Source: a virus. From it: a DNA stretch of 26,514 nt. Within the stretch, counting starts at the first letter, position 1. Each line of letters opens with the position of its first letter. Where the stretch lies: the UHGV virus genome UHGV-0108392, one strand, 5' to 3'. Of the stretch, positions 4,325-26,246 are shown piece after piece. Both the position numbers and the translations under genes were made by a program. Under the pieces are notes generated by a model. The model saw only the letters and a program-made list of their open reading frames with translations. It was not told where the DNA came from and searched no databases.

Positions 4325-4477
4325 TCAGCCCTCCCATATCTCGTTATCGTTGGCCACATCGCGAGCTTCTTTGCTGACGAAAGCCCACTTAATGCCTTCC
4401 TGTAAGGTGCGAAACTTCCAACTCATGAATCCGCATGCAGTAACGCAGTACCAACCGTTGATGATTTTCCACTGCAT
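4325..4477 (-). CDS. Small ORF (49 aa), first gene after the leftward early promoter; not in the supplied ORF track
   Basis: Hand translation of the minus strand gives MQWKIINGWYCVTACGFMSWKFRTLQEGIKWAFVSKEARDVANDNEIWEG with GAGGT 8 nt upstream of the ATG. It occupies the position lambda N would hold, but is not arginine-rich. Confidence 0.25.
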   Translation of the reverse strand: MQWKIINGWYCVTACGFMSWKFRTLQEGIKWAFVSKEARDVANDNEIWEG

Positions 4478-4482
4478 AACTT

Positions 4483-4573
4483 GTTACCTCGGTCTGTTAC
4501 CGTTGAGGTAATAATTATGCGTATTTGGTTTGATGTCAATAGATATGAGTTAAGAAAATTACCTATTAGGTAA
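4483..4573 (-). promoter_or_regulatory. Leftward early promoter region (pL-like) with flanking operator palindromes
   Basis: Minus strand carries a perfect TTGACA -35 followed by an AT-rich -10 region (CATAATTAT). It is flanked by the perfect palindrome TTACCTATTAGGTAA (4559-4573) and by inverted arms TTACCTC...GAGGTAA (4483-4510) overlapping the RBS of the first ORF. Confidence 0.45.
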
Positions 4574-4590
4574 CAGTATAGGCAATAAAA

Positions 4591-4610
4591 AAGCCGCCAG
4601 AAGGCGGCTT
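4591..4610 (-). terminator. Rho-independent terminator downstream of the repressor gene
   Basis: Hairpin AAGCCGCC-AGAA-GGCGGCTT, followed on the minus strand by a T-rich run (TTTTTTATTG). Confidence 0.5.
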
Positions 4611-4630
4611 ACTTACTGAAAAGTATGATT

Positions 4631-5215
4631 TTATTGTTTGTTTTTTTCGTTCTGGTTGATGACAAATTCAATGTAACTTTCGATCTTTGCTTTCTCGGTT
4701 TCGGGTAACAATGCGTAGCGCGAGCGGTCATAGTTGATGGTCGCAGGGTCGTGCGGGTGAATCAGTAATTCATAGCCGTGACGCCCGAATGCGGATGCAA
4801 CATTCTCCAGGGTGGAAATGGAAACGCTGACCTCATTGTTTAACAGGCGGCTGATTGTCACCTGGGCGACGCCGGATGCGCGGTGAAGTTTTCCCTGAGT
4901 TGAAAGGTCGCGGCTTTCGCTCATCCAGCGTTCCAGGTTGTGAGCCGCCAGCTGACCAATGTCGCTTGGGCCGACAGGCTGAAAACCTTCCTGAGAAAGC
5001 GAGCGATCGATATCAAGCCAGTTACGTGGTTTATTGGCGGCAGCTTCAATTTTTCGCGCAACCTGGTCGCCGATAACCTTCTTGCCAAGAGCCCAGCGGT
5101 TTACCAGATTTGCCTGAGTTCCAAGTTTTTCTGCCATCCGCGTCTGAACACCATTGAATTCACGGTCGATCAAGTCGTTGAGATTTTGCCTGCGGACGTC
5201 CTGGATACTTTTCAT
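4631..5215 (-). CDS. Prophage repressor, two HTH-like segments (XRE/CI type), no S24 peptidase domain
   Basis: N-terminal segment (QTRMAEKLGTQANLVNRWALGKKVIGDQVARKIEAAANKPRNWLD) matches the CI-repressor HTH pattern; a second HTH-like segment lies in the C-terminal half. Divergent from a cro-like gene across an operator-rich intergenic region. Confidence 0.6.
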   Translation of the reverse strand: MKSIQDVRRQNLNDLIDREFNGVQTRMAEKLGTQANLVNRWALGKKVIGDQVARKIEAAANKPRNWLDIDRSLSQEGFQPVGPSDIGQLAAHNLERWMSESRDLSTQGKLHRASGVAQVTISRLLNNEVSVSISTLENVASAFGRHGYELLIHPHDPATINYDRSRYALLPETEKAKIESYIEFVINQNEKNKQ

Positions 5216-5369
5216 TTTCTGGAAAATCGCCTCATATATGAATCAGTAGATGATTCAATTTAAAGCAATATTACCCAACAGGTAAATGCACCTCATGGGT
5301 AACTATCCTTGATTTTTGTTACCTTATGGGTGAATATTTATTATCTGAAATAAATATCAGGCAATAGCT
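5216..5369. promoter_or_regulatory. Divergent promoter/operator switch region between repressor and cro-like gene
   Basis: Three operator-like sites related to TTACCT-N3-AGGTAA at 5271-5285, 5288-5302 and 5319-5333. A rightward promoter candidate (TTGATT at 5309-5314, -10 near 5332-5338) has the third operator inside its spacer. Confidence 0.55.
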
Positions 5370-5600
5370 ATGAGCGATAACGGACATTTCGATTTCAAAA
5401 AGCACTGGCTTGCACTTACTCCGGATGAGCGTGAAGCCTTCGCACAGGAAGCCGGAACGACGAGTCACTATATCCAGACTCACTTAACAGGTAAGCGCAA
5501 AATGCCAGGTAATGTATTGATGGATGGGCTTTTTAAAGCCTGTAAATCAAGACAATGGCTGCGCTCAAAAGCAGAACTGGCATACTTCTTCTACTCATGA
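5370..5600 (+). CDS. Cro-like small HTH regulator
   Basis: 76-aa protein with an HTH-like segment (EAGTTSHYIQTHLTGKRKMP); first gene of the rightward operon, opposite the repressor. Confidence 0.5.
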   Translation: MSDNGHFDFKKHWLALTPDEREAFAQEAGTTSHYIQTHLTGKRKMPGNVLMDGLFKACKSRQWLRSKAELAYFFYS

Positions 5601-5750
5601 TATCCAGCCACAACCCTCTGTAGACCGCCATCCGGCGGTCTTTTCATATCTATTCGTACCTCAAAGGTAATAAAAAACCAAATATGGTTGATCTTTTTTT
5701 TGTGTCAGCACAAAATAACCGTAATCCCAATACTAATAACAGGGCTTACC

Positions 5751-5951
5751 ATGGAAATCATTACACGTATTGATGCCGCAAAGCGCGGACTTAAACGCTA
5801 CTACACCGGAAAACCATGTAAGCACGGACATGACAGTGAACGCTGGGTTTACAACGGACACTGTGTTGAGTGCACCATGGAATCAAACCGTCGCATCAGG
5901 GCAGAGATTAAGCAGATCATGATTAATTCCTCCCCACAACACTCAAGCTGA
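5751..5951 (+). CDS. Small Cys/His-rich (zinc-ribbon-like) protein in the cII position
   Basis: MEIITRIDAAKRGLKRYYTGKPCKHGHDSERWVYNGHCVECT with a C-x-H-x-H...H-C-x2-C arrangement. Start is uncertain: the track begins at a TTG at 5688, which would add a hydrophobic N-terminus. Confidence 0.4.
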   Translation: MEIITRIDAAKRGLKRYYTGKPCKHGHDSERWVYNGHCVECTMESNRRIRAEIKQIMINSSPQHSS

Positions 5952-5966
5952 TAGCGGAGATTAATC

Positions 5967-6782
5967 ATGAGCAGACATGCAACAGATTGGGCCTGGGAGA
6001 CAGATCCAGGTAGCTCATCATTAAAGCTCATACTGCTCTCGATGGCTGACAGAGCCGATGAATATAACCTCTGCTACCCCAGCATAGAACGCCTCGTTAA
6101 AGACACTTGCCTGAATAAAAAAACCGTGCAGGCCGGGCTTATATCGCTCATGAAAATGGGGCTTATTTCAGATACCGGAGAGAGAAAGGGAGCGACAAAA
6201 AGAGTGCGGGTTTTCTCTCTTAATATAACCAAAAACGGGAACATTAAAGGCAACCGGGAAGGGGGTAATGAACCCGAAAACGGTAATTTTACCGAAAACG
6301 GGAATATACCCAAAAACGGGATGTTGAATGATCCCAAAAACGGGATGTTGAATGATCCCAAAAACGGGATCCAGAACCAGTCATATAACCAGTCATTTAA
6401 CCAAGAGAGGGAGAGCAGGACAAAAAACGGGGATTCTGTGTCTCATGACCCCGGCGCAAACAACGCCGTGATGAATAACTTTGTTCCTCCTGGTGGGCCA
6501 GGGCAATTAGGCAAATTTGTCATGCATGAACAATGGCAACCATCAGATGACTTTCTTCGGAAAAGCTCATTGCAGGGGATCTACCTGGACAGTCTGCCAA
6601 CGGCACAGGAACTTGCAGAGTTCAGAATTTACTGGATGGCTGAGGGTAAGGCATACCATCAGGCACAGTGGGAGCAGAAGCTGGCAAGGAGGCTGCAGAT
6701 TAGCAGACAGAAGCAATCAACATTACCTGATAACAACGTTCCGCACTGGAACAGCCCTGAAGCATGGGAGGATTTCTTGTGA
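5967..6782 (+). CDS. Replication initiator (O-like; N-terminal HTH, C-terminal DnaT-like region) containing the origin iterons
   Basis: N-terminus (DWAWETD...LKLILLSMADRADEYNLCYPSIERLVKDTCLNKKTVQAGLISLMKMGLI) fits phage replication-initiator HTH proteins. A central repetitive linker is encoded by the iterons. Immediately upstream of the P-like gene. Confidence 0.7.
   Translation: MSRHATDWAWETDPGSSSLKLILLSMADRADEYNLCYPSIERLVKDTCLNKKTVQAGLISLMKMGLISDTGERKGATKRVRVFSLNITKNGNIKGNREGGNEPENGNFTENGNIPKNGMLNDPKNGMLNDPKNGIQNQSYNQSFNQERESRTKNGDSVSHDPGANNAVMNNFVPPGGPGQLGKFVMHEQWQPSDDFLRKSSLQGIYLDSLPTAQELAEFRIYWMAEGKAYHQAQWEQKLARRLQISRQKQSTLPDNNVPHWNSPEAWEDFL
6229..6434 (+). repeat. Iteron array (putative origin of replication) inside the initiator gene
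   Basis: Eight or more direct copies of CC(A/C/G)AAAACGG(G), including two perfect tandem 24-mers CCCAAAAACGGGATGTTGAATGAT (6309-6332 and 6333-6356); these encode the repeated P(K/E)NG peptide. Confidence 0.65.
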
Positions 6783-7564
6783 ACAACGTTTTTACCGCGA
6801 TACAAAACCGTGACGGAGAAGCCCTTTCTCGCATGTCAGGTTATGAGCATCAGTACACCAACAATGACAACGTGGTGAACATGTCAGCAGAGAGGCTTGT
6901 TGATGCCCTTTTCAAACAGCTGAAACAACTGTTTCCGGCGGCAGTGGTAACCAACCTGAAGACGCCAGAGCAGGAAGTTGCTGCAAAACAGCAGTGGATT
7001 GCTGCGTTTGCCGAAGGGGGGATCCGAACCCGTGAACAGGTTTCTGCTGGTATGCGCCACGCCCGCGCCAGTGAGTCTCCGTTCTGGCCGTCGCCAGGGC
7101 AATTCATCAAGTGGTGTAAAGACAGCAAGATGGTTCTTGGCGTCACCATTGACGATGTGATGGCGGAGTTTCACCGGTACAGCAAGGAAAAAAGTTTATA
7201 TCCTGGTGGTCCCGAAAGATTCCCGTGGCGACATCCGGTTATGTACTGGGTCGTATGTGATACCCGCCGTGCAATGTATCAGCGCCAGCTTAGCGAGATT
7301 GAGGTTGAGAAACACGCGCGCAGGCTGCTCGATGATTGGGCGAAAAAGGTAGCTTCCGGACAGCAGATACCCGATCCGGTGATCAGCATACAGGCAAAGC
7401 GAGAGCCCATGAGTACACCTCCGGACACAGGGAGAGACGTTTACCATCCACCAGGGCGAAGTTTCGGGTGCATGCCTAACGCCGCCACCCTTGGGGGAAT
7501 AACACCGGCGCAGTGGCTGATGGAGGAATACAGGCGGGGAAAGGCGGCAGGATTTATCAAGTAA
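6779..7564 (+). CDS. Replication protein P-like (DnaB helicase loader)
   Basis: Clear similarity to lambda P as recalled (REQVSAGMRHARASESPFWPSPGQFIKWCKDS versus lambda MEQVNAGMRVARRQNRPFLPSPGQFVAWCREE). A GTG at 6779 has a GGGAGG RBS and overlaps the O-like stop; an alternative ATG lies at 6764. Confidence 0.8.
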   Translation: MNNVFTAIQNRDGEALSRMSGYEHQYTNNDNVVNMSAERLVDALFKQLKQLFPAAVVTNLKTPEQEVAAKQQWIAAFAEGGIRTREQVSAGMRHARASESPFWPSPGQFIKWCKDSKMVLGVTIDDVMAEFHRYSKEKSLYPGGPERFPWRHPVMYWVVCDTRRAMYQRQLSEIEVEKHARRLLDDWAKKVASGQQIPDPVISIQAKREPMSTPPDTGRDVYHPPGRSFGCMPNAATLGGITPAQWLMEEYRRGKAAGFIK

Positions 7565-7602
7565 TACCAGCGCGATAGCGCATTTTTTTACGCCTCAATG
7601 AT

Positions 7603-7678
7603 TACCTATCAGGTAACAAAATATTCTAAACTCTATTGATTTCGTGTCTTATGTGGTTTTTAATTACCTAAGAGGTAA
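7603..7678 (+). promoter_or_regulatory. Promoter with two operator palindromes upstream of the nin-like gene cluster
   Basis: TTGATT (7636-7641), 17-bp spacer, TTTAAT (7659-7664). Perfect palindromes TTACCTATCAGGTAA (7603-7617) and TTACCTAAGAGGTAA (7664-7678) flank and overlap the -10/RBS. Confidence 0.5.
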
Positions 7679-7681
7679 ATC

Positions 7682-8026
7682 ATGAGAAAACAGATACAGG
7701 CTCTTGGTCGACTCAAAACAGGCCAGATGAACAAAACAGAATCTGCGTATTGCCAGCACCTTGAGCTGCGTAAACGTGCAGGAGAAATCGTCTGGTATCG
7801 ATTTGAGGGTATCAAGCTGCGGTTAGCTGACAACACGTTCTATACGCCCGATTTTGCTGTGATGCTCGCCACCGGCGAGATGGAACTGCACGAAGTGAAA
7901 GGTTTCTGGACCGACGACGCCAGGGTGAAAACCAAAGTCGCCGCAGATCAGTATCCGTTCCGAATCATCGGGGTAACGGTTAAACCAAAGAAAGCAGGTG
8001 GTGGCTGGAACATCGAAGAGTTCTGA
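7682..8026 (+). CDS. DUF1064-family protein (putative PD-(D/E)XK-like nuclease)
   Basis: 114-aa protein with the YTPDF...HEVKG motif pattern recalled for DUF1064 phage proteins. Confidence 0.55.
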   Translation: MRKQIQALGRLKTGQMNKTESAYCQHLELRKRAGEIVWYRFEGIKLRLADNTFYTPDFAVMLATGEMELHEVKGFWTDDARVKTKVAADQYPFRIIGVTVKPKKAGGGWNIEEF

Positions 8027-8087
8027 ATCGACGATCTTTTTAGTTATCAATGTAATCAATAAGTTATGTGGATAAGCGAGGGTAAAG

Positions 8088-8588
8088 ATGGAAAGTAATA
8101 TCAAAGGGTTAGTTTCCGCCGGGCATGAGATGGCTTCGGAACTGAAAGCAGAATGTGGTGCCGTTGATATGCGCAGTGTGGCAAAGCTGATCAGCGATTT
8201 GGCAACGCAACTGGAAGTGCAACTGGTGCGTGCTAATGCGCTGGCCGAAGACCACCAGAAAGCGATTGAGTCAATTAAGCAGGCTGATTCGGCTGTTAAG
8301 TTGGCACACGAGAAGTTTTCAGCGCTGGCGGCGGAGAATGCTGGGCTGAAACATGCAATGGCTGTAACTCTTGAGCATGTGTCGGTCACGGATGCAGGGC
8401 AGGCTGGTGTTGCTGCAATGATTATCAACGATGCCCTACACCACAGCGAAACTCCAGCCACCGATGCTTTTCTGGCTGAAGTACGTGCGCAGGGCGTGGA
8501 GATGTTTGCGGAGTGTGCATACACACTTGAACATCATGATCACGCAGTAGCTTTTGCCGCCGAGCTACGTGAAGGAGGCAACAAGTGA
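8088..8588 (+). CDS. Hypothetical coiled-coil phage protein
   Basis: 166-aa Ala/Glu-rich ORF with RBS; no confident family assignment. Confidence 0.5.
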   Translation: MESNIKGLVSAGHEMASELKAECGAVDMRSVAKLISDLATQLEVQLVRANALAEDHQKAIESIKQADSAVKLAHEKFSALAAENAGLKHAMAVTLEHVSVTDAGQAGVAAMIINDALHHSETPATDAFLAEVRAQGVEMFAECAYTLEHHDHAVAFAAELREGGNK

Positions 8589-8884
8589 CTGTATGTCTTA
8601 TTGATAAACGTCGACGTGGGCAACAAATACCATCTGTTGAAATGCCGAATCACACATGGTTTTGCGTACTTGATATCGATGGTATGGATACGTTGATCGA
8701 CACTCGTCATTACTGCGATACCGCAACAGCTACTCCTGCAAAAGCAAAGAAAATGGCTGCTCTGATAGAAAACTGGACTCCACCTGATGGTTGGTGCAAT
8801 GGGAATGATCGAGATTGGCACGAAAAAATGAAGGGCTATATCTGCGATTTTTTACGTAAATGCAACGGATTCAGGGTGATGTGA
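8585..8884 (+). CDS. Hypothetical protein
   Basis: GTG start overlapping the upstream stop (GTGA); Cys/His/Trp-containing 99-aa product. Confidence 0.4.
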   Translation: MTVCLIDKRRRGQQIPSVEMPNHTWFCVLDIDGMDTLIDTRHYCDTATATPAKAKKMAALIENWTPPDGWCNGNDRDWHEKMKGYICDFLRKCNGFRVM

Positions 8885-8885
8885 T

Positions 8886-9284
8886 ATGACCAAAATTAAC
8901 TATCAGGCACTGCGTGAGGCGGCAGAGCGTGCAATTCCGGCAATGGAACGCCTGTTAATGTTGCCAGTTGATGATGATCTGATAAGCGAGCAGGAACTTA
9001 AAGATAGCGGTGTTGATATTGATGCGCTCAATGCCTTCAAAATTCTGGCCGGACCAGAAAGCGTGCTGGCGCTACTGGATGAACTAGAAGCTAAAAACAA
9101 ACGCATTACAGAACTGGAAGCGAGGGAAGTTCAATTACCGACTCGCTACGACCTTCGATATGGGCACCCAATAAATGCTAATAAGCGGCATGTCATGATA
9201 CCTAAAGAAAATGGCAGTTGGCTTTGCCTGATTGACTTAGAACACGCACTACGCGTCGCTGGCATTCGCATCAAAGGAGAGTGA
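8886..9284 (+). CDS. Ead/Ea22-like protein
   Basis: N-terminal INYQALREAAERA... and coiled-coil LLDELEAKNKRITELEA pattern typical of lambdoid Ea22-like proteins. Confidence 0.5.
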   Translation: MTKINYQALREAAERAIPAMERLLMLPVDDDLISEQELKDSGVDIDALNAFKILAGPESVLALLDELEAKNKRITELEAREVQLPTRYDLRYGHPINANKRHVMIPKENGSWLCLIDLEHALRVAGIRIKGE

Positions 9285-9285
9285 T

Positions 9286-9651
9286 ATGGCACTGACGAAA
9301 AAACAACGTGCAGAGCTGCGCATGAAGTTCGGCGGTCGCTGTGCTTATTGCGGCTGCGAACTTGGCGAAAAGTGGCATGCAGACCATGTAAAACCGGTCA
9401 TTCGTTTTGCTGGAAATATGCTTCACCAGGAACGTGACGATATATCCAACATGGTTCCGGCATGCCACCCATGCAATCTGCACAAGCATTGCAGCAGCCT
9501 GGAAGATTATCGGCGAATTATCAGTGATGGTCGTCGTGAATTCCTTGCGTCCGGGAAAGGCAAAGCGCTGGTTCGTATGGGATTGGTTGAAATGAAATCT
9601 GACCCGATTGTGTTCTGGTTTGAAAAATATCAAGAAGGGGCTACGGCATGA
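9286..9651 (+). CDS. HNH endonuclease
   Basis: CAYCGCEL...HADHVKP...PACHPCNLHK: HNH motif with paired Cys zinc ligands. Confidence 0.75.
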   Translation: MALTKKQRAELRMKFGGRCAYCGCELGEKWHADHVKPVIRFAGNMLHQERDDISNMVPACHPCNLHKHCSSLEDYRRIISDGRREFLASGKGKALVRMGLVEMKSDPIVFWFEKYQEGATA

Positions 9652-10037
9652 CCACTATTACCAGAGAAAACGCGGAAATTAAATCATTCATCACTGGTTT
9701 CCTGAGCGACCCGGCGCACGATAACCAATCTTCAAACAGCCTGCTTGCCAATGTGTTTCGTATTGCACTGGTATCGCTGGAAGCAAAACCAATAGGTGCA
9801 TTTCACATTGCAGAACAGCAAGTTGACGGCACAAGTGACTACATCAAGGATGGGGAGTGGCCTATTGATAATGGAATTATTGAGGTCTACGCCGCTCCAC
9901 CCGTTCCAGTAGTACCGGAAGAAAAACCAATGCCTAATCCTCTTAGCATGTACGCGGTTGATGCTGTTGCTGCTATTGCAGAGGTGAGAGGCTGGAACGC
10001 CTGCCGTGCCGCTATGCTTCAGGGAAAAGGAGAGTGA
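9648..10037 (+). CDS. Hypothetical protein; N-terminus paralogous to the next gene
   Basis: Starts MTTITRENAEIK; the next gene starts MTTITDKKQYP, and both are preceded by an identical 16-nt initiation cassette. Confidence 0.45.
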   Translation: MTTITRENAEIKSFITGFLSDPAHDNQSSNSLLANVFRIALVSLEAKPIGAFHIAEQQVDGTSDYIKDGEWPIDNGIIEVYAAPPVPVVPEEKPMPNPLSMYAVDAVAAIAEVRGWNACRAAMLQGKGE

Positions 10038-10038
10038 T

Positions 10039-10611
10039 ATGACCACTATAACCGATAAGAAACAGTATCCCAGCGATCAATATCTTAATGAGCTGATCAC
10101 CAACATGGAGTTTGCTGCAAGGGCACCAGTTGAAGTCGTGAGAGTGATGGCAGCAGAGCTACAGAAGCGGCGCGAAGCTGATAGTGCAGAACCTGTAAGC
10201 CAAACTTACAACTTGCCACAAACGCACTTTGAACAGGTTGCTGACCTTTACGAAATGCAATTTGAGGATGGACGCACTTGTGCCTTTCATACTGATGCGA
10301 AAAAGGCTGCGCAATGGCTTCAGTCATGTGACGGAAACAGGGTTCAGGAATATGTGAAGCTGGAGCGGTTGCAGAACGCGCTGTCTGGCAACTCTCCGGT
10401 AACTCAGGATGGCTGGATAAGCTGTAGTGAGCGAATGCCAAACGAAGAAGATGTTTTGGTTTATTGCTCAGACACAAAAGAGCAGATGGTAGGGTTTCAC
10501 AAAGGTAAAGGGTTATTTCAATTCTTTTACATGAATGGTGTTGAGGGGGTATGTGAGCCGTCACACTGGATGCCACTACCAGAACCGCCGCAGGAGGTTA
10601 ACCGTGGCTAA
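10039..10611 (+). CDS. DUF551-like phage protein
   Basis: C-terminal DGWISCSERMPNEEDVLVY...HWMPLPEPP pattern recalled for the DUF551 phage domain; AAGGAGAG RBS before the ATG at 10039. Confidence 0.5.
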   Translation: MTTITDKKQYPSDQYLNELITNMEFAARAPVEVVRVMAAELQKRREADSAEPVSQTYNLPQTHFEQVADLYEMQFEDGRTCAFHTDAKKAAQWLQSCDGNRVQEYVKLERLQNALSGNSPVTQDGWISCSERMPNEEDVLVYCSDTKEQMVGFHKGKGLFQFFYMNGVEGVCEPSHWMPLPEPPQEVNRG

Positions 10612-10885
10612 CCTGCAACTTGCCGTCAAAGGTGAATATTTCGACCAGATGAAGTCAGGCGAGAAAACGGAAGAGTATCGCCTGTGTAATGACTACTGGA
10701 ATAAGCGAATTATGTTCCGGGAGTATGACCGCCTGATTATCACAAAGGGATATCCGAAGCGCGACGATTCCTGCCGCAGAATTGACGTCCCGTATGACGG
10801 ATATGAAATCAAGACAATCACACATCCGCACTTCGGTGATAAACCGGTAAAGGTGTTCGCGATAAAGGTAAATATTGATGGCTAA
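10604..10885 (+). CDS. ASCH/DUF3850-like small protein
   Basis: GEYFDQMKSGEKTEEYRLCND...REYD pattern resembling ASCH-fold proteins; GTG start at 10604 preceded by CAGGAGG. Confidence 0.45.
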   Translation: MANLQLAVKGEYFDQMKSGEKTEEYRLCNDYWNKRIMFREYDRLIITKGYPKRDDSCRRIDVPYDGYEIKTITHPHFGDKPVKVFAIKVNIDG

Positions 10886-11216
10886 ATCAGCAGCAGAGCG
10901 CAAAGCCGCTCAGAGAGCCAGACAAGCTGCATCTGGTGTGCGTAAGCTGGAGATTGTGCTTGATGCTCAGGAAATTGAAATGCTGGAGCGTAACTGTGCC
11001 ACACGTCGCCCCGGGCGTGCGCCTTACGAATTTGGTGAGTATATAGCGTTACTGATCTGCCAGGATGATGCACGCGTGCGCGGGCGTATAAAATCGATCA
11101 GCAGAAAACGTTGCGGTAAGTGCGGCGAGAGAGTTCCTGTGAATTCATGCCCGTGTAATGGTGACTCGCAATGCTGGGTGACTAAAGGCTGGCATGAAAC
11201 GAAATTAATAGTGTGA
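10878..11216 (+). CDS. Hypothetical Cys-rich protein (CGKCG...CPCNGDSQC)
   Basis: ORF overlapping the upstream stop; basic N-terminus and a Cys cluster suggest a zinc-binding, possibly DNA-binding protein. Sits where a late regulator might be expected, but there is no direct evidence for that role. Confidence 0.45.
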   Translation: MAKSAAERKAAQRARQAASGVRKLEIVLDAQEIEMLERNCATRRPGRAPYEFGEYIALLICQDDARVRGRIKSISRKRCGKCGERVPVNSCPCNGDSQCWVTKGWHETKLIV

Positions 11217-11233
11217 CATGTCACGAAGGTGTT

Positions 11234-11446
11234 ATGCCAAAAATACGCTACGACCTTGAAGATATGAGAGATAACTCAGCAAATTTTCCGAAAGAGGTTA
11301 AATTTCTCATGCATAAGTATGGTTGCGCCAGGAGGGATATAGTTATCGACAGTCAGCACCCTTGCGGCGAGGATGTAATTTTCATTCGCGGTAAATGGGA
11401 AGGGTATCTTGACGAGAGTTTTTACGATGAATTTGATGGACTTTGA
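11234..11446 (+). CDS. Hypothetical small protein
   Basis: ATG at 11234 with AAGGTG RBS; the track's 11213 start lies inside the GTGACATGTCAC palindrome. Confidence 0.4.
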   Translation: MPKIRYDLEDMRDNSANFPKEVKFLMHKYGCARRDIVIDSQHPCGEDVIFIRGKWEGYLDESFYDEFDGL

Positions 11447-11520
11447 ATACTGCCGCCAACTATGGCGGCTTTATTTTGCATGGTACTATTACCACAACGG
11501 TAACTATTACCAAGGTGGTT

Positions 11521-12117
11521 ATGATGCCTGCTGAACCTAAAACCTATAAACGCAAATCAACGCAATTTAAGCCACTAACAGCAATGCAGGAGGCTTATTG
11601 CCAGTCATACATCAAAACGCCTGAAAACCAGACTCAGGCAGCGATTAACGCAGGATTCTCCCCAAATACAGCGGCAGTTAAAGCCAGTGTCATGATGCGC
11701 GATGAACGCATTCAAAAACGGATTGCCGAGTTGATGGAGGAGCGCAACAAACGAATGCGCGTCAGTGCTGATTACGTTCTCATGCGCCTGGTGGAGATCG
11801 ACCAGATGGACGTGATCGACATCCTCAACGACGATGGGAGCCTTAAACCAATCCGTGAGTGGCCGAAAATCTGGCGCACTACGCTTAGTGGCTTTGATCT
11901 GTCATCGACCATCATGAACATGAACGAGGATTCGATAGAGACAATCCTCAAAAAAATTAAATGGCCTGACAAGGTGAAGAACCTTGAGCTGATTGGTAAG
12001 CATGTTGATGTCAACGCGTTCAAAGAACGTCTGGATGTTAATGTGAATGTGACAATTGCTGATCGCATAGCAGCAGCCAGGAAGCGACTCAAAGAACGTC
12101 AGGATGGTAATCAGTGA
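11521..12117 (+). CDS. Terminase small subunit
   Basis: Immediately upstream of, and overlapping (GTGA), the large terminase gene; N-terminal region (QEAYCQSYIKTPENQTQAAINAGFSPNTAAVKASVMMRDERIQKRI) resembles terminase small-subunit HTH domains. The true start is probably ATG 11521 (AAGGTGG RBS) rather than the track's 11443. Confidence 0.6.
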   Translation: MMPAEPKTYKRKSTQFKPLTAMQEAYCQSYIKTPENQTQAAINAGFSPNTAAVKASVMMRDERIQKRIAELMEERNKRMRVSADYVLMRLVEIDQMDVIDILNDDGSLKPIREWPKIWRTTLSGFDLSSTIMNMNEDSIETILKKIKWPDKVKNLELIGKHVDVNAFKERLDVNVNVTIADRIAAARKRLKERQDGNQ

Positions 12118-13589
12118 CAGATACAGCGTTATCTCCTGAAGAGCAGTTGATCGAGGATATTGCAGGGTTCACTCACGATCCGCTTGGTTATGCCCTCTAT
12201 GCGTTCCCGTGGGGGGAAGAGGGGACTGAACTGGCACATGCCACCGGTCCACGTCAGTGGCAGGCCGATGCGTTCCGAGAGATACGTGATCACCTGCAGA
12301 ATCCAGAGACGCGCTATCAGCCGCTTATGCTGGCACGCGCTTCTGGTCACGGTATTGGTAAATCCGCATTCATCTCAATGCTGATCAACTGGGGCATGTC
12401 CACTTGCGAGGATTGTAAGGTCGTGGTGACCGCCAACACCGACAACCAGCTACGAACGAAGACTTGGCCGGAAATTATCAAGTGGTCGAACCTTGCTATC
12501 ACGAAAGACTGGTTTACCTGTACCGCTACCGCGATGTACAGCAATGATCCTGGGCACGACAAGCGGTGGCGAGCTGACGCAATCCCCTGGTCTGAGCACA
12601 ACACTGAGGCATTCGCCGGACTACACAACGAGCGCAAACGCATCATCGTGGTATTCGATGAAGCGTCGAACATTGCGGATCTGGTGTGGGAAGTTGCCGA
12701 GGGTGCGCTAACGGACGAAGACACTGAGATTATCTGGGTGGCGTTCGGAAACCCGACGCGTAATACCGGACGTTTCCGCGAATGTTTCCGCAAATATAAA
12801 CACCGCTGGAAAACTGCGCAGATTGACAGCCGGACGGTGGAAGGCACTAACAAACAGCAGTTGCAGAAATGGGTTGATGACTACGGGGAAGACAGCGACT
12901 TCGTTAAAATCCGTGTGCGCGGCATATTCCCGGATGCATCTGAATTGCAGTTTATCCCTACCGGACTTACTGACGAGGCAATGAAACGGGTGGTCACCGC
13001 TGCGCAGGTTGCACATGCTCCGGTGATAATCGGCGTTGACCCGGCATACTCAGGCGTTGATGATGCGGTGATATACCTGCGGCAGGGGCTGCACAGTAAG
13101 GTGCTGTGGACCGGCAACAAGACCACTGACGATCTGATTATGGCAAAGCGTATCGCTGACTTTGAAGACCAGTATCAGGCTGACGCGGTGTTCATCGACT
13201 TCGGTTACGGAACTGGTCTGAAGTCAATCGGTGACGGCTGGGGTCGTACATGGCAACTTGTTCCGTTCGGTGGCGCGTCTACTGACCCGCAGATGCTCAA
13301 TAAGCGCGGGGAGATGTTCAACTCATGCAAGACGTGGCTGAGGCTGGGCGGCATGCTTGATGACCAGGAAACAGCGGACGACCTGTCGGCGGCAGAGTAC
13401 AAAGTTCGAGTGGACGGTAAAATCGTTATCGAACCGAAGGAAGATATCAAGGAGCGGCTTGGGCGTTCTCCTGGTAAAGGCGATGCGCTACTGCTGACGT
13501 TTGCGTTCCCTGTGTCGAAGCGTCTGCGAATTCCCGGGCAGCAGAACCAGCAAGGCAAGGCCATCACAGATTACGATCCATATGCTTAA
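12114..13589 (+). CDS. Terminase large subunit
   Basis: Walker A-like ARASGHGIGKS, Walker B-like VVFDEASN, C-terminal nuclease-type region; 491 aa. Confidence 0.85.
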   Translation: MTDTALSPEEQLIEDIAGFTHDPLGYALYAFPWGEEGTELAHATGPRQWQADAFREIRDHLQNPETRYQPLMLARASGHGIGKSAFISMLINWGMSTCEDCKVVVTANTDNQLRTKTWPEIIKWSNLAITKDWFTCTATAMYSNDPGHDKRWRADAIPWSEHNTEAFAGLHNERKRIIVVFDEASNIADLVWEVAEGALTDEDTEIIWVAFGNPTRNTGRFRECFRKYKHRWKTAQIDSRTVEGTNKQQLQKWVDDYGEDSDFVKIRVRGIFPDASELQFIPTGLTDEAMKRVVTAAQVAHAPVIIGVDPAYSGVDDAVIYLRQGLHSKVLWTGNKTTDDLIMAKRIADFEDQYQADAVFIDFGYGTGLKSIGDGWGRTWQLVPFGGASTDPQMLNKRGEMFNSCKTWLRLGGMLDDQETADDLSAAEYKVRVDGKIVIEPKEDIKERLGRSPGKGDALLLTFAFPVSKRLRIPGQQNQQGKAITDYDPYA

Positions 13590-13639
13590 TCCGCTGGTGG
13601 GGATAATGTCGTTGATATCCTCTGATGAGGATAAAACAA

Positions 13640-13659
13640 AGCCAGCTCATCGGCTGGCT
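13640..13659. terminator. Putative bidirectional terminator hairpin between large terminase and the convergent moron gene
   Basis: AGCCAGC-TCATCG-GCTGGCT hairpin with A/T-rich flanks on both sides. Confidence 0.4.
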
Positions 13660-13679
13660 GTTTGTGACATGTCACGGTG

Positions 13680-14099
13680 TTACTTAATGGCATTAAATCC
13701 AGCGTTGATGGCTTCCGCAATATTGATGGCACTTGTTTTATCGAAGTGCCCATTCTGAATAAGCGCCGCATGCAGGCATTGTAACTTCATGTTGTATAAG
13801 TGTTCGCTCATGTAATCATGATCACTTTTTGCTTTAGCGTAAACAGCGCGAGAAATATCAAACATATCGCCTTTTTCCATTTCAGAACGTTGTGCTGTTA
13901 TCCAGTCATGGAACGTAACGCTAGTACCATGGTCTTCGCTAAGAGTTAACCCGGCCAGTCCCTCACTCTGAATTACTTCGTAATGCATTTCATTACCAGC
14001 AAAAACGCCATAAAAAACGCAGTCTTCAGCCTGAACGATACGAGAATATTTTAATGGCCATTCATTTAGATACTTAGCCAACATATCAATTGTCTTCAT
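13680..14099 (-). CDS. Hypothetical protein (139 aa), opposite-strand moron gene downstream of the tRNA
   Basis: Good RBS (AAGGTGAG), opposite orientation to the flanking packaging and structural genes, no recognisable domain. Confidence 0.5.
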   Translation of the reverse strand: MKTIDMLAKYLNEWPLKYSRIVQAEDCVFYGVFAGNEMHYEVIQSEGLAGLTLSEDHGTSVTFHDWITAQRSEMEKGDMFDISRAVYAKAKSDHDYMSEHLYNMKLQCLHAALIQNGHFDKTSAINIAEAINAGFNAIK

Positions 14100-14298
14100 A
14101 ATCTCACCTTAAAAAAATGCCCGGACGAACCGGGCGAACTGGAAGCAATGAGTTCTGCCTTCCGTGGCTGTACTGGTTTACAGCATGAAGTCATCGCAAT
14201 GGCGTCCTGCTGTAAAAAGGGCGGTGATAGTCCTTCAAGGGAAACCATCACCGCCAAGCACCTGGAACTTCTGGCATCACGGTCCTTAGGCGTGATTC

Positions 14299-14375
14299 TG
14301 GCGTGGCATGCAGGATTCGAACCTGCGACCAACCGCTTAGAAGGCGGTTGCTCTGTCCAACTGAGCTAATGCCAC
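14299..14375 (-). tRNA. tRNA-Arg (anticodon UCU), phage-encoded, CCA encoded
   Basis: Reverse complement folds by hand as a 77-nt cloverleaf: acceptor GTGGCAT/ATGCCAC, D-stem GCTC/GAGC, anticodon stem ACCGC/GCGGT with loop CTTCTAA, T-stem GCAGG/CCTGC with loop TTCGAAT, then G-CCA. Stem sequences differ from E. coli argU as recalled. Confidence 0.9.
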
Positions 14376-14697
14376 AACGCTGAGAGCACTTAGCCTGTTA
14401 AGGCGCCACACTTTGTCGCGGCTCCATAAATGCTCTCATCGTTGTACCCTCGTCTCTTCCGAGGCGTCACACCGAATCGCCGGGATGGTGAATCCCCGTG
14501 CGCGGAATAAAACCGCTCGACTTGCACATTCCGGCTACCTGGTTCGTTTGCCCGAGCAAGGGAGGGTGCCCCTTAAACGTATCCAGACCGCTATCGGCGC
14601 ATGTGCCATACGCCGTACTGCTCAAAATAAAAGCTCACTCCACCTGTTCAATTTAACGACAAGCCAGTCATGTTAGTAACCGGAATGAACTCTTTGG

Positions 14698-14712
14698 TTA
14701 CCTCAAAGGTAA
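14698..14712. promoter_or_regulatory. Perfect operator palindrome TTACCTCAAAGGTAA upstream of the structural-gene module
   Basis: Same 15-bp palindrome as at the early promoters; a perfect TTGACA lies on the minus strand at 14734-14729 next to it. Confidence 0.4.
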
Positions 14713-14802
14713 TAATTCGCGCATTAAATGTCAACTGCCTACGATAAATAAATCATATGTGGTTAAATTGGTAATAATTTAATTGCGTACGGAGTCATTG
14801 AT

Positions 14803-19904: not shown

Positions 19905-20509
19905 TGGCCTCTGTAGTAGAGATCTGTAATCGTGCGCTGTCCAATATTGGCAACAGCCGCAGCATTAACAGCCTGACGGAAGCCAGCAAGGAAGCGGGGG
20001 AATGTTCGCTGCATTTTGAGGCCTGTCGTGATGCTGTGCTTTCTGATTTTGACTGGAACTTTGCTACAAAACGCGTGGCGCTTGCAGATACGAGCAATCC
20101 ACCGCCTGACTGGGAATATGCGTACCAGTACCCTTCCGATTGTCTGCGCATTACTGAAATTATGCTTCCTGGTGTACGCAATCCAACAGCAGCAATGCGT
20201 GTTCAGTACGAAGTTGGTGCAGACACCAACGGAACAGGAAAATTGATCTACACAGACCAGCCGCAGGCATGGCTTAAGTATGTCTCTCGCGTTACAGATG
20301 TGAACATGTTTGATGCCATTTTTATGGAGGCGCTGGCCTGGCGTCTTGCGGCAGCTATTAACATGGCGCTGACTGGGAATGCAGACCTCGGTACGTTTGC
20401 CCTCAATATGTACAATCGCGTGATTCTTAGTGCTGGCTCGCATAGCCAGAATGAATCACAGGAACCACAGCCACCGGTTGATGAGTTTACCATTGCGAGG
20501 TTGTCCTGA
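19904..20509 (+). CDS. Tail tubular protein A-like (T7 gp11-like adaptor), tentative
   Basis: About 200 aa, same size class and position as T7 gp11; weak N-terminal pattern similarity (ALSNIGNSRSINSLTE versus T7 ILASIGEPPVSTLE as recalled). Confidence 0.45.
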   Translation: MASVVEICNRALSNIGNSRSINSLTEASKEAGECSLHFEACRDAVLSDFDWNFATKRVALADTSNPPPDWEYAYQYPSDCLRITEIMLPGVRNPTAAMRVQYEVGADTNGTGKLIYTDQPQAWLKYVSRVTDVNMFDAIFMEALAWRLAAAINMALTGNADLGTFALNMYNRVILSAGSHSQNESQEPQPPVDEFTIARLS

Positions 20510-22560
20510 TGGCTATCAGTTGGATCCAGCCCAGCTTTGCCGGTGGTGAGATTGGACCGTCGTTGTACGGTCGTATCGACATGGCGAAGTACCAGGTGGC
20601 ATTGCGCAAGTGCGATAACTTTATCGTGCGGCAGTATGGCGGCGTTGAGAATCGACCTGGTACGCGTTTTGTCGGTGCCGCCAAATACCCAAATCGGAAA
20701 TGCCGCCTGATCCCGTTCCAGTTCTCGACGGTTCAGACCTATGCTCTGGAGTTCGGGCACCAGTACATGCGCGTTATCAAAGATGGTGCGTTGGTGCTGA
20801 ACAGCAGCAATGTTATTTATGAAATTGCCACGCCATATACTGAAGCCGATCTGTTCCGAATTAAATTTACGCAAAGCGCCGACGTGCTTACGCTGGTTCA
20901 CCCGGCATACCCGCCGAAAGAGTTGCGCCGCTATGCGCATGACAACTGGCAACTGGTTGATGTGGTAACGAAGAACGGGCCATTTGAAGATATCAATATT
21001 GACGAGTCAGTGACGGTTTATGCCAGCGCCAGCACCGGGACAATTACGTTAACAGCAAGCGCCTCTATTTTTGGCGCGGAGCAGGTAGGCAAATTGTTCT
21101 ATCTGGAACAGCCTGCAGTGGATTCAGTGCCGGTATGGGAAACCAGTAAGAGTACGTCGATTGGCGATATTCGCCGTGCAGACAGTAACTACTATCGCGC
21201 CGTTACAGCAGGCAAAACAGGCACTTTGCGCCCTTCGCATACAGAAGGCACATCATGGGATGGCTGGGGCGGATCCGGTGATGATGATACTGGCATTGAG
21301 TGGGAATATCTGCACAGTGGTTTTGGCATTGCCCGTATCACTGCTGCAAATGGAACTACTGCAACTGCCGAGGTGATTTCCTATATCCCTTCGCAGGTCG
21401 TTGGCGAGGATAATGCCAGCTATAAATGGGCTAAATATGCCTGGAACAGTGTTAATGGTTATCCTGGCACTGTTGTTTATTATCAACAACGTCTTTACTT
21501 CGCCGCATCGACTGCGTTCCCTCAGACTATCTGGGCCAGCCGTACCGGGGATTATAAGGATTTTGGCAAAAGCAATCCTACGCAGGATGACGACAGAATT
21601 ATCTACACCTATGCCGGGCGTCAGGTTAATGAGATCCGCCACCTGATTGATGTCGGTTCGCTGGTGGCACTGACTTCCGGAGGTGAGTACGTCATCACCG
21701 GCGACCAGAACAAAGTGTTAACCCCATCATCATTTGCATTCAGCTCTCAGGGATCAAATGGCTCGAGCAATGTCCCACCAATTGCTGTGGCGAATATTGC
21801 TCTGTTCGTCCAGGAGAAAGGCAGCGTTGTCCGTGATCTGGCCTACTCATTCGATGTTGACGGCTATCAGGGGAACGACCTGACCATCCTTGCCAATCAT
21901 CTTTTTCAGAAGCACAGCATTGTTGACTGGTGCTTCTCGATTGTCCCTTACTCCAGCGCCTTCTGCATTCGTGATGACGGTAAATTACTGGTGATGACCT
22001 ATTTGCGTGATCAGCAGGTTTTTGCATGGGCACCACAGTCCAGTACCGGAAAATATGAAAGCACATGCAGTATCAGCGAAGGCAATGAAGATGCGGTGTA
22101 TTTCGTCGTTAACCGAACCGTTAACGGGCAAGCAGTGAGATACATCGAGAGACTGTCCAGCCGTTTATTTACCAGCGATGAAGACGCTTTCTTTGTTGAT
22201 TCTGGCCTTAGCTATGATGGAAGAAATACGTCTGACAGAACGATGATCATCACTGGTGGTTCTGGTGAATGGGATTACCGCGCGGAATATACAATCAGTG
22301 TTTCTGGTGGTGCGTACTTCACCAGTAGTGATGTCGGTGCGCAACTACAGTTCCCTTATGCCGGAACTGATCCTGATACTGGCGATGAAGTGTCAAAAGA
22401 ATTACGTTGCGACATTATTTCTGTAACCAGCAATACCGCTGTAGTGGTTCGTCCTAACAGGAACGTCCCGCCATCCCTCAGGAATGTGGCCACCACGAAC
22501 TGGCAGATGGCGCGCCGGGCATTTGGCGGCTTGTCTCATCTTGAAGGTCAGACCGTAAAC
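20509..22560 (+). CDS. Tail protein (tail tubular B / nozzle-like by synteny); phage-derived N-terminal ~684 codons of an ORF that runs in frame into foreign DNA
   Basis: Enterobacterial-type composition and codon usage up to about 22560; the same ORF (track 20509..24012) then continues in frame into lower-GC sequence, so the native 3' end is missing. Functional call is by gene order only. Confidence 0.45.
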
Positions 22561-22599
22561 ATGGATGAAGTCAATTTCTTTGCCAAGAGGATGAAAAGC

Positions 22600-24012
22600 A
22601 TGACGGAATATGAAAGAAAAGTTCTGTCAGCGTATGCTGAGGATTATGGTGTGGCTACCATGCAGGATTTAATCAATCTGACATTCAGCATGAAAGGTCT
22701 TTCATTGCTTACAGATTTTTCAGATGCCAGACAGGTCGGGGAACGTCTTTACTTGGATGAATTCTTGGGAATATCAGAAGAAGAAAAAGCGCAGACCAAC
22801 TTTATTGAGTTTGCGGAAAAAACCTTAAAGGAGAGCCGGGTGGAAGTCCTGCCCTATGGAGTTTTTGTAGAGCATGGCTTTGAAATGCAGGAAGTGTACA
22901 ATGGAAAAACATTTCCGTCTTTCGTTGCATCGGATGAGACTGTGGCAATTGTCGAGTTACAGAACAAAGCCGGAGATACAGAGTATCTGTACCTGCCAAC
23001 GGATATCAGTTCCATGAACAAGGTAAAGGAGCGGTTGCAGGTGCAGGATTATTGGGAGATGGAAGTAACCGGAATTGAAAACCTTCGTTTACCGGATATC
23101 CTTGTACCGATGCCGGAAAACATTGATTGTGTGGAAGCACTGACATTATTTAATGAGACATGTCAGGCGGTAAAACGTTTTGATGAAGTGCAGATGACGC
23201 AGCTTGCGATGGTGGTAGAATTTACCGGATTTAGTAGTTCTACTGAGGTGACAAGTATTGCAAGACTGCTTGGGGAATTTGAAGTGAATCCTTTCGTACA
23301 CAATGATGAAGAGTATGGAAAGTACATGGTGGAAGAGTCCGGGTTATTTGATGTGGATGAGTTATTGCTCCCTCATATTAATTATGCAGCCTTTGCAGCG
23401 GATAAGAGACAGGGAACACTTGTGCAAAGTGGTTATGTAGAAAATGGTTTTGTGGGAGCCACCAGAGAACTTTCAGAGTACCAGCAGTATAATGGAGAGT
23501 TTGCTGATCCGTTAGAAATTGATGAAGACTGCTATGAAACATTTAAACTTTATAGTCCGCTGACAGGAAATTTATTTGAAGGTGGCTGTGAGCGGGGAAA
23601 CTTATATCGTAGCGATCTGACACCGTATGCGGAGGAAATTGCAGAAACCATTGAAAATGAATATTGTGTCGGGGAAGAGCCAAGAGGTCTCATGCATTAC
23701 TTTGATAGAAGTCTGGTGGTGGCGGCGAAAGTAATGTCTGCATATCCCAAGGTAGAGATTGTGGATGGCGAAGTTTATGGTGTGCTGGAATGTAAAGTCA
23801 GTGAAGCATTAACAGAGCATGATATTGAAGTGTTAAAGGAATATTGGACCGGACAGATGAGTGACGGATGGGGTGAAGGCTTTGAACAGCATCCAATTTT
23901 AGTAGAGGACGGAGAAATCTATGTCAGTTTTTGGAACAGCGAGAATTTCTGGAATGTTATGACCGAGGAGGAACTGATGGGAGGACAGGTTCAGGGAATG
24001 GATATGTGCTAA
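22600..24012 (+). CDS. Hypothetical acidic protein, Firmicutes-type (about 470 aa if it starts at ATG 22600)
   Basis: AAGAGG RBS 9 nt before ATG 22600; Glu/Asp/Tyr/Phe-rich; GAA/GGA/AAG-heavy codon usage unlike the upstream phage genes. The true N-terminus may lie upstream of the junction. Confidence 0.4.
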   Translation: MTEYERKVLSAYAEDYGVATMQDLINLTFSMKGLSLLTDFSDARQVGERLYLDEFLGISEEEKAQTNFIEFAEKTLKESRVEVLPYGVFVEHGFEMQEVYNGKTFPSFVASDETVAIVELQNKAGDTEYLYLPTDISSMNKVKERLQVQDYWEMEVTGIENLRLPDILVPMPENIDCVEALTLFNETCQAVKRFDEVQMTQLAMVVEFTGFSSSTEVTSIARLLGEFEVNPFVHNDEEYGKYMVEESGLFDVDELLLPHINYAAFAADKRQGTLVQSGYVENGFVGATRELSEYQQYNGEFADPLEIDEDCYETFKLYSPLTGNLFEGGCERGNLYRSDLTPYAEEIAETIENEYCVGEEPRGLMHYFDRSLVVAAKVMSAYPKVEIVDGEVYGVLECKVSEALTEHDIEVLKEYWTGQMSDGWGEGFEQHPILVEDGEIYVSFWNSENFWNVMTEEELMGGQVQGMDMC

Positions 24013-24068
24013 TAAATATATTGAATCCGCCTAAAGAAAAGAATCAAGGAGATTGAGGAAGGAGAATC

Positions 24069-24815: not shown

Positions 24816-24832
24816 AGGAGAGGAGGACATAA

Positions 24833-25834: not shown

Positions 25835-26246
25835 AAAAGGCTGTATTGAAATTCCCATTGTATTGCTTGCACAGACAGGCATCTGTATCGGGGAGGAGGT
25901 AAATCTGATTTATCTTGCCGCAGGGGAGAAGGATTACCGTAATGAATCAAGGGAATTCATGTTGAAAAGAGCCGGGGAAAATCCATTGGAGGAGCTGCAG
26001 AGTGGGGAAACGGAGTTGAAACTGCCGCCACAGTTGCTTGCAGATGCACACATTCCCTTGGATGCAGACCTGGACATTGTCTGCTTGGATAGAAAAATTG
26101 TGATTCTGCCTACGGAGGATGTGGAGTCAGAGGATGTACCCAAAGAACTTCTGGATATCTGTGCAGAGCTTGGCATCCCCAGAGAAAAAGTAAACATTGT
26201 TTTGCGTATGACCGAGGAGGGGAGCGATGAAAAAGCCGGTGTATAA
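25797..26246 (+). CDS. Protein with two AbrB/SpoVT-like (swapped-hairpin) segments
   Basis: ATG at 25797 with GGAGGA RBS, overlapping the methyltransferase 3' end; two segments (IEIPIVLLAQTGICIGEEVNL and ELKLPPQLLADAHIPLDADLDIVCLDRKIVILP) resemble AbrB/MazE-type DNA-binding hairpins. Confidence 0.45.
   Translation: MVQLVEITGVLNEKGCIEIPIVLLAQTGICIGEEVNLIYLAAGEKDYRNESREFMLKRAGENPLEELQSGETELKLPPQLLADAHIPLDADLDIVCLDRKIVILPTEDVESEDVPKELLDICAELGIPREKVNIVLRMTEEGSDEKAGV

Follow-up and report, generated by a model that had tools for sequence, protein, structure and literature searches.

The lysogeny repressor Rep of Salmonella phage SPC32H provides the closest described counterpart to the system analyzed here. 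According to published work (PMC9638917; PMC9986798; bioRxiv 2025.11.27.690993), SPC32H Rep binds DNA through its N-terminal domain, dimerises through a middle one, and ends in a C-terminal p53-like tetramerisation ("TetDloop") domain; its tetramer binds palindromic DNA, with each DNA-reading pair drawn from different dimers, and its inactivation depends on the tetrameric antirepressor Ant, not on cleavage. For epsilon15, GenBank record AY150271.2 carries seven features labeled "protein_bind / repressor / lysogeny" with the sequence ATTACC-N5-GGTAAT, located before terS, before gp3 (the first head gene), between gp19 and the tailspike genes, at the leftward early promoter (three sites), and before RuvC/nin. 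Here, we analyzed a stretch of 26,514 nucleotides from the virus genome UHGV-0108392 (hereafter, the window), in which a 15-base-pair (bp) palindrome, TTACCT-N3-AGGTAA, recurs at operon starts. The epsilon15 sites are counterparts of those in the window, save for the tailspike site, which falls outside it; the public epsilon15 annotation already contains the motif, assigns it to the repressor, and gives its positions, late operons included. We consider it highly probable that the palindromes are operators of the lysogeny repressor Rep (4631-5215), a non-cleavable, tetramer-forming helix-turn-helix (HTH) protein of the SPC32H/epsilon15 family.

Megablast placed the window in the genus Uetakevirus (epsilon15/phiV10-like temperate podoviruses), with ~98% identity to phages PAS61, phiV10, phiv142-3, ZX5, and others over positions 1-22562. 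From left to right, it contains the 3' part of an integrase gene, a leftward early operon, the minus-strand repressor gene, and the cro-like gene diverging from it, followed rightward by replication genes, a nin-like block, terS and terL, a minus-strand gene, a tRNA-Arg gene, and head and tail genes. We scanned five relatives for sites, namely epsilon15, SPC32H, phiV10, Tyrion (Enterobacter), and BUCT711 (Klebsiella), whose Reps are 42-78% identical to that of the window.

A palindromic core at operon starts

Exact copies of TTACCT-N3-AGGTAA were found four times in the window (4559-4573, 7602-7616, 7664-7678, and 14698-14712; 0.00 expected), and tolerating up to two mismatches raised the number to 10, against 0.6 expected. 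The conserved unit was the 10-base core TTACC-N5-GGTAA, with A/T preferred on each flank and A/T at the centre; a T as the sixth base was a preference, present in 19 of 32 half-sites of the phiV10 type. Seven perfect and three one-mismatch cores were present in the window, compared with 0.00 and 0.41 in first-order Markov sequences. All 10 lay within the 1,797 non-coding bases that make up 6.8% of the window, a placement with a chance probability of ~0.068^10. Inside genes, we observed 14 two-mismatch core matches, the same order as the ~7 given by a random background, and a match at 5480-5494 within the cro-like gene, which has two core mismatches, was treated as background. A 100-kilobase (kb) sample of the E. 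coli chromosome held no perfect core and a single one-mismatch core. Neither coding regions nor this host sample therefore carried the motif at a similar density. Overall, eleven sites were located at six operon boundaries over 10 kb.

The initial annotation had proposed that a single palindrome is reused at operon starts, and the counts, placement, and conservation of the sites confirmed this. Three of the copies it placed (4559-4573, 7664-7678, and 14698-14712) were recovered unchanged, and two were corrected, from 7603-7617 to 7602-7616 and from 5657-5670 to 5656-5670. The inverted arms it described at 4483-4510 are better resolved into two elements, a full operator (4497-4511) and a GAGGTAA that stands apart from it (4484-4490). 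Its three-site array does lie between the divergent rep and cro-like genes, with the last site overlapping the rightward promoter, but the site at 5288-5302 is weak in the window. A tandem pair upstream of terS (11489-11503, a perfect core, and 11507-11521) was not on its list. The sites and the promoters that go with them are:

4497-4511: proximal operator, leftward early promoter, TTACCGTTGAGGTAA; shares one base, the last, with the -10 element and covers the predicted start; half-sites invariant in the six-genome alignment.
4511-4539 (minus strand): leftward early (pL-like) promoter; TTGACA at 4539-4534, 17-bp spacer, AATTAT at 4516-4511; 10/12 matches in the promoter scan.
4559-4573: distal operator, leftward early promoter, TTACCTATTAGGTAA; spaced exactly 62 bp from its proximal partner, a conserved distance.
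4591-4610 (minus strand): intrinsic terminator after rep, which parts the repressor transcript from the leftward early promoter.
5271-5285: first site of the rep/cro array, TTACCCAACAGGTAA; overlaps a minus-strand -35-like TTTACC of a putative rep promoter.
5288-5302: second site of the rep/cro array, GCACCTCATGGGTAA; two core mismatches; 17 bp from the first site.
5319-5333: third site of the rep/cro array, TTACCTTATGGGTGA; lies within the rightward early promoter core; 31 bp from the second site.
5656-5670: single operator before the replication genes, GTACCTCAAAGGTAA; directly after a terminator at 5622-5641.
7602-7616: distal operator of the nin-like promoter, TTACCTATCAGGTAA; downstream of a conserved GCGC hairpin plus T7 at 7570-7590.
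7636-7664 (plus strand): promoter of the nin-like operon; TTGATT at 7636-7641, 17-bp spacer, TTTAAT at 7659-7664.
7664-7678: proximal operator of the nin-like promoter, TTACCTAAGAGGTAA; begins at the last base of the -10 element, 62 bp from the distal operator.
11489-11521: two operators in tandem upstream of terS, TTACCACAACGGTAA followed by TTACCAAGGTGGTTA at a spacing of 18 bp; after a terminator at 11452-11469.
14698-14712: operator before the head/structural operon, TTACCTCAAAGGTAA; homologous to the annotated epsilon15 repressor site 2931-2947.

The positions of these sites recur in epsilon15, SPC32H, phiV10, Tyrion, and BUCT711 despite their diverged repressors. The palindrome is perfectly symmetric, and its arms were base-for-base invariant across ~47 perfect sites. 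When we aligned five regulatory regions (the leftward early promoter, the rep/cro operator region, and the DNA before nin, terS, and gp3), the half-sites were invariant, and the central 5 bases and the flanking DNA varied. Invariant half-sites amid a variable centre and variable flanks are the classical footprint of base-specific recognition by a protein.

A stem of 5 bp with a loop of 5 nucleotides, 15 nucleotides in all, also resembles lambdoid boxB. The palindromes might then act as RNA hairpins, either boxB/nut-like or as processing sites, instead of as DNA operators; each site can be folded (-3.3 to -5.9 kcal/mol), and the sites are close to terminators. We rejected this explanation, which we hold to be very improbable. 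The hairpins are weak, the arms do not covary, and the one-mismatch sites are mostly uncompensated (GTACC..GGTAA, TCACC..GGTAA, TTACC..GGTTA). The loop is variable, with conservation running symmetrically into the A/T flanks, and the proximal sites straddle the predicted start, so that only half of each would be transcribed. Moreover, the sites lie downstream of terminators, not ahead of them, and the tRNA was the sole match in an Rfam scan.

In the leftward early promoter, CTATTGAC was invariant across six genomes. The rightward early promoter is TTGTTA-17-TATTAT at 5316-5344 according to the scan, or an alternative that uses the conserved TTGATT at 5309-5314. The weak 5288-5302 site aligned with perfect sites in epsilon15, SPC32H, and BUCT711. 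The site at 5656 was also present in phiV10 and Tyrion, and in a one-mismatch version in BUCT711. The first terS operator is the counterpart of the annotated epsilon15 repressor site 12-27, and an extended -10-like TGGTACTAT at 11481-11489 is found between the terminator at 11452-11469 and the tandem operators. Four of the operator-bearing units downstream of the switch region are preceded by an intrinsic terminator; for the structural unit, the terminator follows terL (13640-13659), and the minus-strand gene and the tRNA gene come next, before the 14698 site.

Several half-sites coincide with ribosome-binding sites. The separate GAGGTAA at 4484-4490 is the Shine-Dalgarno sequence of a minus-strand gene (4325-4477), and the right half of the 7664-7678 operator is that of the ATG at 7682; both of these (4484-4490 and 7672-7678) are identical to the operator right half-site. 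The operators at 7664-7678 and 11507-11521 themselves supply a ribosome-binding site. This identity suggests that promoter-operator-ribosome-binding-site modules were duplicated as units. We also observed that a terS gene starting where it is annotated in phiV10 and PAS61 (equivalent to TTG at 11443) would run through a terminator and two operators. From alignment with epsilon15, SPC32H, and Tyrion, the real start is likely the ATG at 11524, and the terS start in phiV10-type records is apparently 81 bases (27 codons) too far upstream.

Rep and the 62-bp operator pairs

Two HTH proteins are encoded on either side of the rep/cro array:

4631-5215 (minus strand): Rep repressor, 194 amino acids (aa), with an N-terminal HTH DNA-binding domain, a middle HTH-like dimerisation domain, and a C-terminal tetramerisation domain (roles as assigned in PMC9986798).
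5370-5600 (plus strand): cro-like small HTH protein, 76 aa, divergent from rep; may share the rep operators.

A phmmer search against PDB aligned Rep with the crystallised SPC32H Rep (PDB 5D50; 5d50_A) over its full length (residues 1-190 of 194, E = 4e-42). Pfam matched HTH_3 at residues 106-147 and, more weakly, an HTH near residues 21-61; HTH families were the only ones detected, and there was no S24 peptidase domain. In the initial annotation, the binding protein was taken to be, most plausibly, the "two-HTH" product of 4631-5215, and the array was compared to a lambda switch. This product is indeed the most likely binding protein by its homology to SPC32H Rep, but the second HTH (residues 106-147) falls in what PMC9986798 gives as a dimerisation domain, and DNA is bound in the homologue by the N-terminal HTH alone. 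Nor is Rep a lambda CI-like repressor; the S24 peptidase domain is missing. Within the N-terminal domain, the helix NLVNRW, predicted to be the recognition helix, was invariant in all five aligned Reps at an overall identity down to 43%, and it fits the invariant operator half-site. The Rep of the window belongs to the phiV10 immunity type and is 42-43% identical to the epsilon15 and SPC32H Reps. It is identical to the Rep protein of phage ZX5, over-expression of which blocked lytic growth and lowered holin/endolysin transcripts by >99.9% (PMC9782041). We detected no homologue of Ant or phiV10p24 in the window by tblastn; in relatives, the Ant gene adjoins the tailspike gene, beyond the part covered here.

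The leftward early and nin-like promoters share one layout, in which a distal operator, a -35 element, a 17-bp spacer, a -10 element, and a proximal operator follow one another, with the two operators exactly 62 bp apart. The 62-bp spacing was present at both loci in all five relatives, except for 63 bp at one BUCT711 locus. We then scanned viral contigs for two cores 61-63 bp apart and obtained matches in at least 120 contigs; among the contigs listed, a spacing of 62 bp predominated, with 141 cases against 22 at 63 bp and a single one at 61 bp. Within the stored stretch, 83 of the contigs listed encoded a homologue of Rep, at 40-100% identity. Among the matches listed, 132 of 134 distinct modules had TTGA at +34, which places the -35 element at module positions 35-40 and the -10 element at 58-63, the proximal operator on the start, and the distal operator centred near -62. 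In a species-level genome collection, Rep-linked pair matches were Enterobacteriaceae prophages that retained this geometry, and Rep-less matches lacked promoter geometry; the Rep-less matches in unrelated bacteria were set aside as chance or something unrelated. A spacing of 62 bp amounts to ~5.9 helical turns, placing the paired operators on the same face of the DNA.

As a separate observation, Rep-less pairs 63 bp apart recurred in Chitinophagaceae and other Bacteroidota, with no Rep homologue in the stored stretch. The Rep-less counts were 29 for 63 bp versus 14 and 13 for 61 and 62 bp.

We infer that Rep physically binds these sites, that its tetramers bridge the paired ones, and that the late units are repressed in this way, and we propose the following scheme. 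Each pair of N-terminal domains would read one TTACC-N5-GGTAA palindrome, and in a lysogen, Rep tetramers would occupy the sites. At the leftward early and nin-like promoters, which appear to be the two strongest early promoters, one operator would sit near +1, abutting the -10 element, and the second 62 bp upstream on the same face, such that one tetramer, or two interacting tetramers, could clamp both sides of the promoter and shut it. In the rep/cro region, the three graded sites would form the switch, and the single or tandem sites at the replication, terminase, and structural units would silence each unit independently. Silencing would not hinge on a single early promoter combined with antitermination; distal genes could be reached with neither read-through nor antitermination, and neither would have to be prevented. 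In this family, induction proceeds by way of a LexA-controlled antirepressor, Ant, which dissociates the tetramer. The conserved promoter-flanking pair offers a concrete DNA target for the unusual "trans" tetramer binding that has been proposed for SPC32H Rep.

Several considerations weigh against this scheme. The "repressor" labels in AY150271.2 may be purely bioinformatic, and the ZX5 transcript data cannot tell direct from indirect repression. Straight DNA of 62 bp would span ~210 Å, compared with ~100 Å between the pairs of dimerisation domains in the homologue, and bridging would need strong bending or two interacting tetramers. At the head operon, the operator at 14698 overlaps no recognisable core promoter. 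Finally, the HTH of the cro-like protein is even more conserved, and this protein could be the reader, or a co-reader, of the sites.

We weighed this last alternative, in which the cro-like protein (5370-5600) is the main reader, or a further one, and the sites act as a lytic-phase switch, with the protein shutting early promoters and perhaps activating late ones. The protein matched PHROG 35, "transcriptional repressor" (E = 3.5e-12). It was 58-83% identical across relatives, with the segment AGTTSHYIQ.HLT invariant, and 76-83% identical between immunity types whose Reps are just 43% identical, and its HTH is invariant, as is the operator core. A promoter-like block with no -35 element comes downstream of the late sites, which stand ~70-80 bp upstream of the putative start, a position resembling that of a class I activator. 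However, nothing ties the cro-like protein to DNA of the operator sequence, the recognition helix of Rep is equally invariant, and both the GenBank annotation and the structural work give operator binding to Rep. Operators shared by the repressor and a Cro would, in any case, complement the proposed role of Rep and not replace it. We regard a role of the cro-like protein as main or additional reader as rather unlikely, although shared use of the sites is likely enough to be considered, and we retain Rep as the probable reader.

Late genes and candidate regulators

The initial annotation had suggested that the repressor controls late genes directly, rather than through a Q-type antitermination cascade. 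In agreement with the second part, we found no N- or Q-type antiterminator family among the 25 early open reading frames (ORFs) in Pfam, PHROGs, or NCBIfam. The late operators are conserved and have perfect cores, and direct repressor control of late operons is plausible from the sequence; the idea is already implicit in the epsilon15 annotation. It is not established, given an almost invariant block that has no -35 element, a late signature in phiV10, and candidate regulators encoded in the early region. Two features are central here:

14728-14802 (plus strand): block before the first structural gene; 75 bp, almost invariant in six genomes and far above its flanks; possibly an activator-dependent late promoter.
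10875-11216: gp49-like protein, a 113-aa ORF (112 aa from the ATG); homologue of epsilon15 gp49; PHROG 536, "transcriptional regulator".

The promoter scan gave no canonical sigma-70 promoter at the late operator, and the 14728-14802 block contains no recognisable sigma-70 -35 element. The 11 bp between a perfect minus-strand TTGACA at 14729-14734 and an AATTAT are too few for a normal promoter, and none was called there. We observed that TGGTTAAATTGGTAA (14760-14774) is a half-operator exactly 62 bp after the 14698 site. If TAATAA(T) at 14771 serves as the -10 element, the centre of the operator lies near -78. At ~70-80 bp upstream of the putative start, and with no recognisable core promoter overlapped, the late operator would not occlude RNA polymerase. 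The regions upstream of the phiV10 head, tailspike, and lysis genes share CATATGTGGTT-N7-TA(A/T)A(A/T)N (TAATAA, TAATAG, or TATAAT), which looks like a dedicated late-promoter signature.

In an alternative reading, the late genes would not be directly controlled by Rep; the terS and head operators would be secondary or vestigial copies of a duplicated promoter-operator module, and timing would be set by an activator from the early-right operon, for example, the gp49-like protein acting on 14728-14802. The gp49-like gene lies near the end of the early-right operon and is the last conserved early gene before terS; its product belongs to PHROG 536 and is 71-88% identical across genera, with an invariant Cys cluster (C79, C82, C91, C93, and C99). 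Upstream of gp3, the block is kept almost unchanged across six genomes even though it lacks a sigma-70 -35 element, and the phiV10 head, tailspike, and lysis operons have the TAATAA-like motif in common. From reading the sequence together with a low-confidence model, the protein looks to have a helix-helix core with a possible strand, resembling ribbon-helix-helix proteins. On the other hand, it had no sequence match in Pfam, NCBIfam, or PDB, its AlphaFold model had a predicted local distance difference test (pLDDT) score of 63, and Foldseek against PDB returned nothing below E = 8. The late operators are, moreover, as conserved as the early ones and have perfect cores, which speaks against vestigial copies. 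An activator-dependent promoter can also bear a repressor site, and a dedicated activator is thus compatible with Rep as the reader of the operators. We consider it doubtful that the late genes escape direct control by Rep, and we treat the gp49-like protein as a candidate for a hidden Q or late activator. Further candidate regulators are a PerC-like activator (1620-1919) and the cro-like protein.

Taken together with the 62-bp pairs, these features allow a joint reading, which we put forward tentatively. The 62-bp pair would reflect the docking geometry of the Rep tetramer, with heads at +1 and -62 and a six-turn micro-loop around a sigma-70 promoter. The late head-gene promoter would be a diverged copy that has kept the distal operator and a half-operator in the +62 register (14760-14774) and has lost the -35 element; it would be silenced by Rep and dependent on a phage activator, possibly the gp49-like protein. 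If true, a temperate podovirus would run a gene-expression programme wholly without antitermination. In the literature outside the primary epsilon15 and SPC32H papers, we found no description of the 62-bp phasing, of the terminator-then-operator layout, or of a late module with a +62 half-site, and full-text searches turned up nothing pertinent on the motif or on transcriptomics of Uetakevirus.

Around the late region, we made several side observations. A 77-aa ORF (11213-11446; PHROG 1541) is inserted between the gp49-like gene and terS and is absent from that place in PAS61 and phiV10. The 322-bp non-coding region (14376-14697) that separates the minus-strand tRNA-Arg(TCT) gene (14299-14375) from the late operator folds better than shuffled sequences (minus strand, z = -3.1; plus strand, z = -2.1), and an RNase III site is marked at the corresponding place in the epsilon15 record. 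A LexA-box-like CTGTACTGGTTTACAG at 14168-14183 lies upstream of a minus-strand gene (13680-14099; PHROG 4846), between two terminator-like hairpins. Two LexA-like boxes (14168 and 18710) are about what chance would give (~0.4 expected for 8 specified bases).

Of 5,426 complete E. coli genomes, 562 carried the immunity region (4400-5700), which comprises the repressor, the operators, and the cro-like gene, at 95-99% identity and nearly always as a single copy per chromosome. This prophage type is thus common in E. coli, and the operator and promoter map helps its annotation and the design of phiV10-based reporter phages. The practical value is modest, and the present view of phage repressors is unchanged.

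The right end of the window (22563-26514) had no close match in the phage collection or in the same 5,426 E. coli genomes. A tail protein at 20509-24012 (1,167 aa) matched its family over residues 1-685 only and has a foreign C-terminal extension, in which residues 872-975 gave a weak anti-restriction-like match. Downstream of it are a DNA methyltransferase gene (24833-25834) and an antitoxin-like ORF (26227-26514), and the genes of this right end constitute unusual cargo within a block of virion genes.

Comparison with known systems

The system is most like the epsilon15/SPC32H Rep system of Uetakevirus, with which it shares a homologous repressor, the same half-sites, and the same genomic positions, including the 62-bp pairs at the leftward early promoter and before nin, the triple rep/cro site, and the sites before terS and the head genes. 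In the window, T is commoner as the sixth base, and the centre has a lower A/T content. Of the epsilon15 sites near the leftward early promoter, the third, at a distance of 76 bp, is missing from the window; conversely, the window has an extra site after the cro-like gene (5656) that is not in epsilon15.

Similar to the lambda CI/Cro region, the window has divergent repressor and cro-type genes with three operators between them and a second set of operators at a leftward early promoter ~0.7 kb away; here too, an oligomerising repressor probably binds several sites cooperatively. Unlike lambda, the window has no S24 autocleavage domain and no N or Q homologue. Its operators are also found at the replication, nin-like, terminase, and structural units, and its pairs are 62 bp apart and flank a promoter instead of being adjacent. 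This unit-by-unit layout, with an intrinsic terminator ahead of most operator-bearing promoters, stands as a clear alternative to the cascade of antitermination in lambda.

P1 C1, which has many operators around the genome, and gp71 of mycobacteriophage L5, which acts on stoperators, are phage repressors with dispersed operators, and P1 also has an antirepressor. As in these phages, one immunity repressor would serve many dispersed sites at several separate operons. In contrast to the asymmetric sites of these repressors, the operators in the window are symmetric palindromes; they are confined to intergenic operon starts, and none is within an operon, where stoperators are found. Pfam detected no homology of Rep to C1 or gp71, giving generic HTH matches alone.

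The p53-like TetDloop fold reported for SPC32H Rep (PMC9986798) relates Rep to another group of repressors. Rco of pLS20, which has operators 75 bp apart and a p53-like tetramerisation domain, and the Lac and Gal repressors resemble the proposed Rep arrangement in that a two-headed tetramer acts on operators that flank a promoter in helical phase. The 62-bp spacing in the window is shorter than in these classic cases, and DNA looping by Rep is a proposal.

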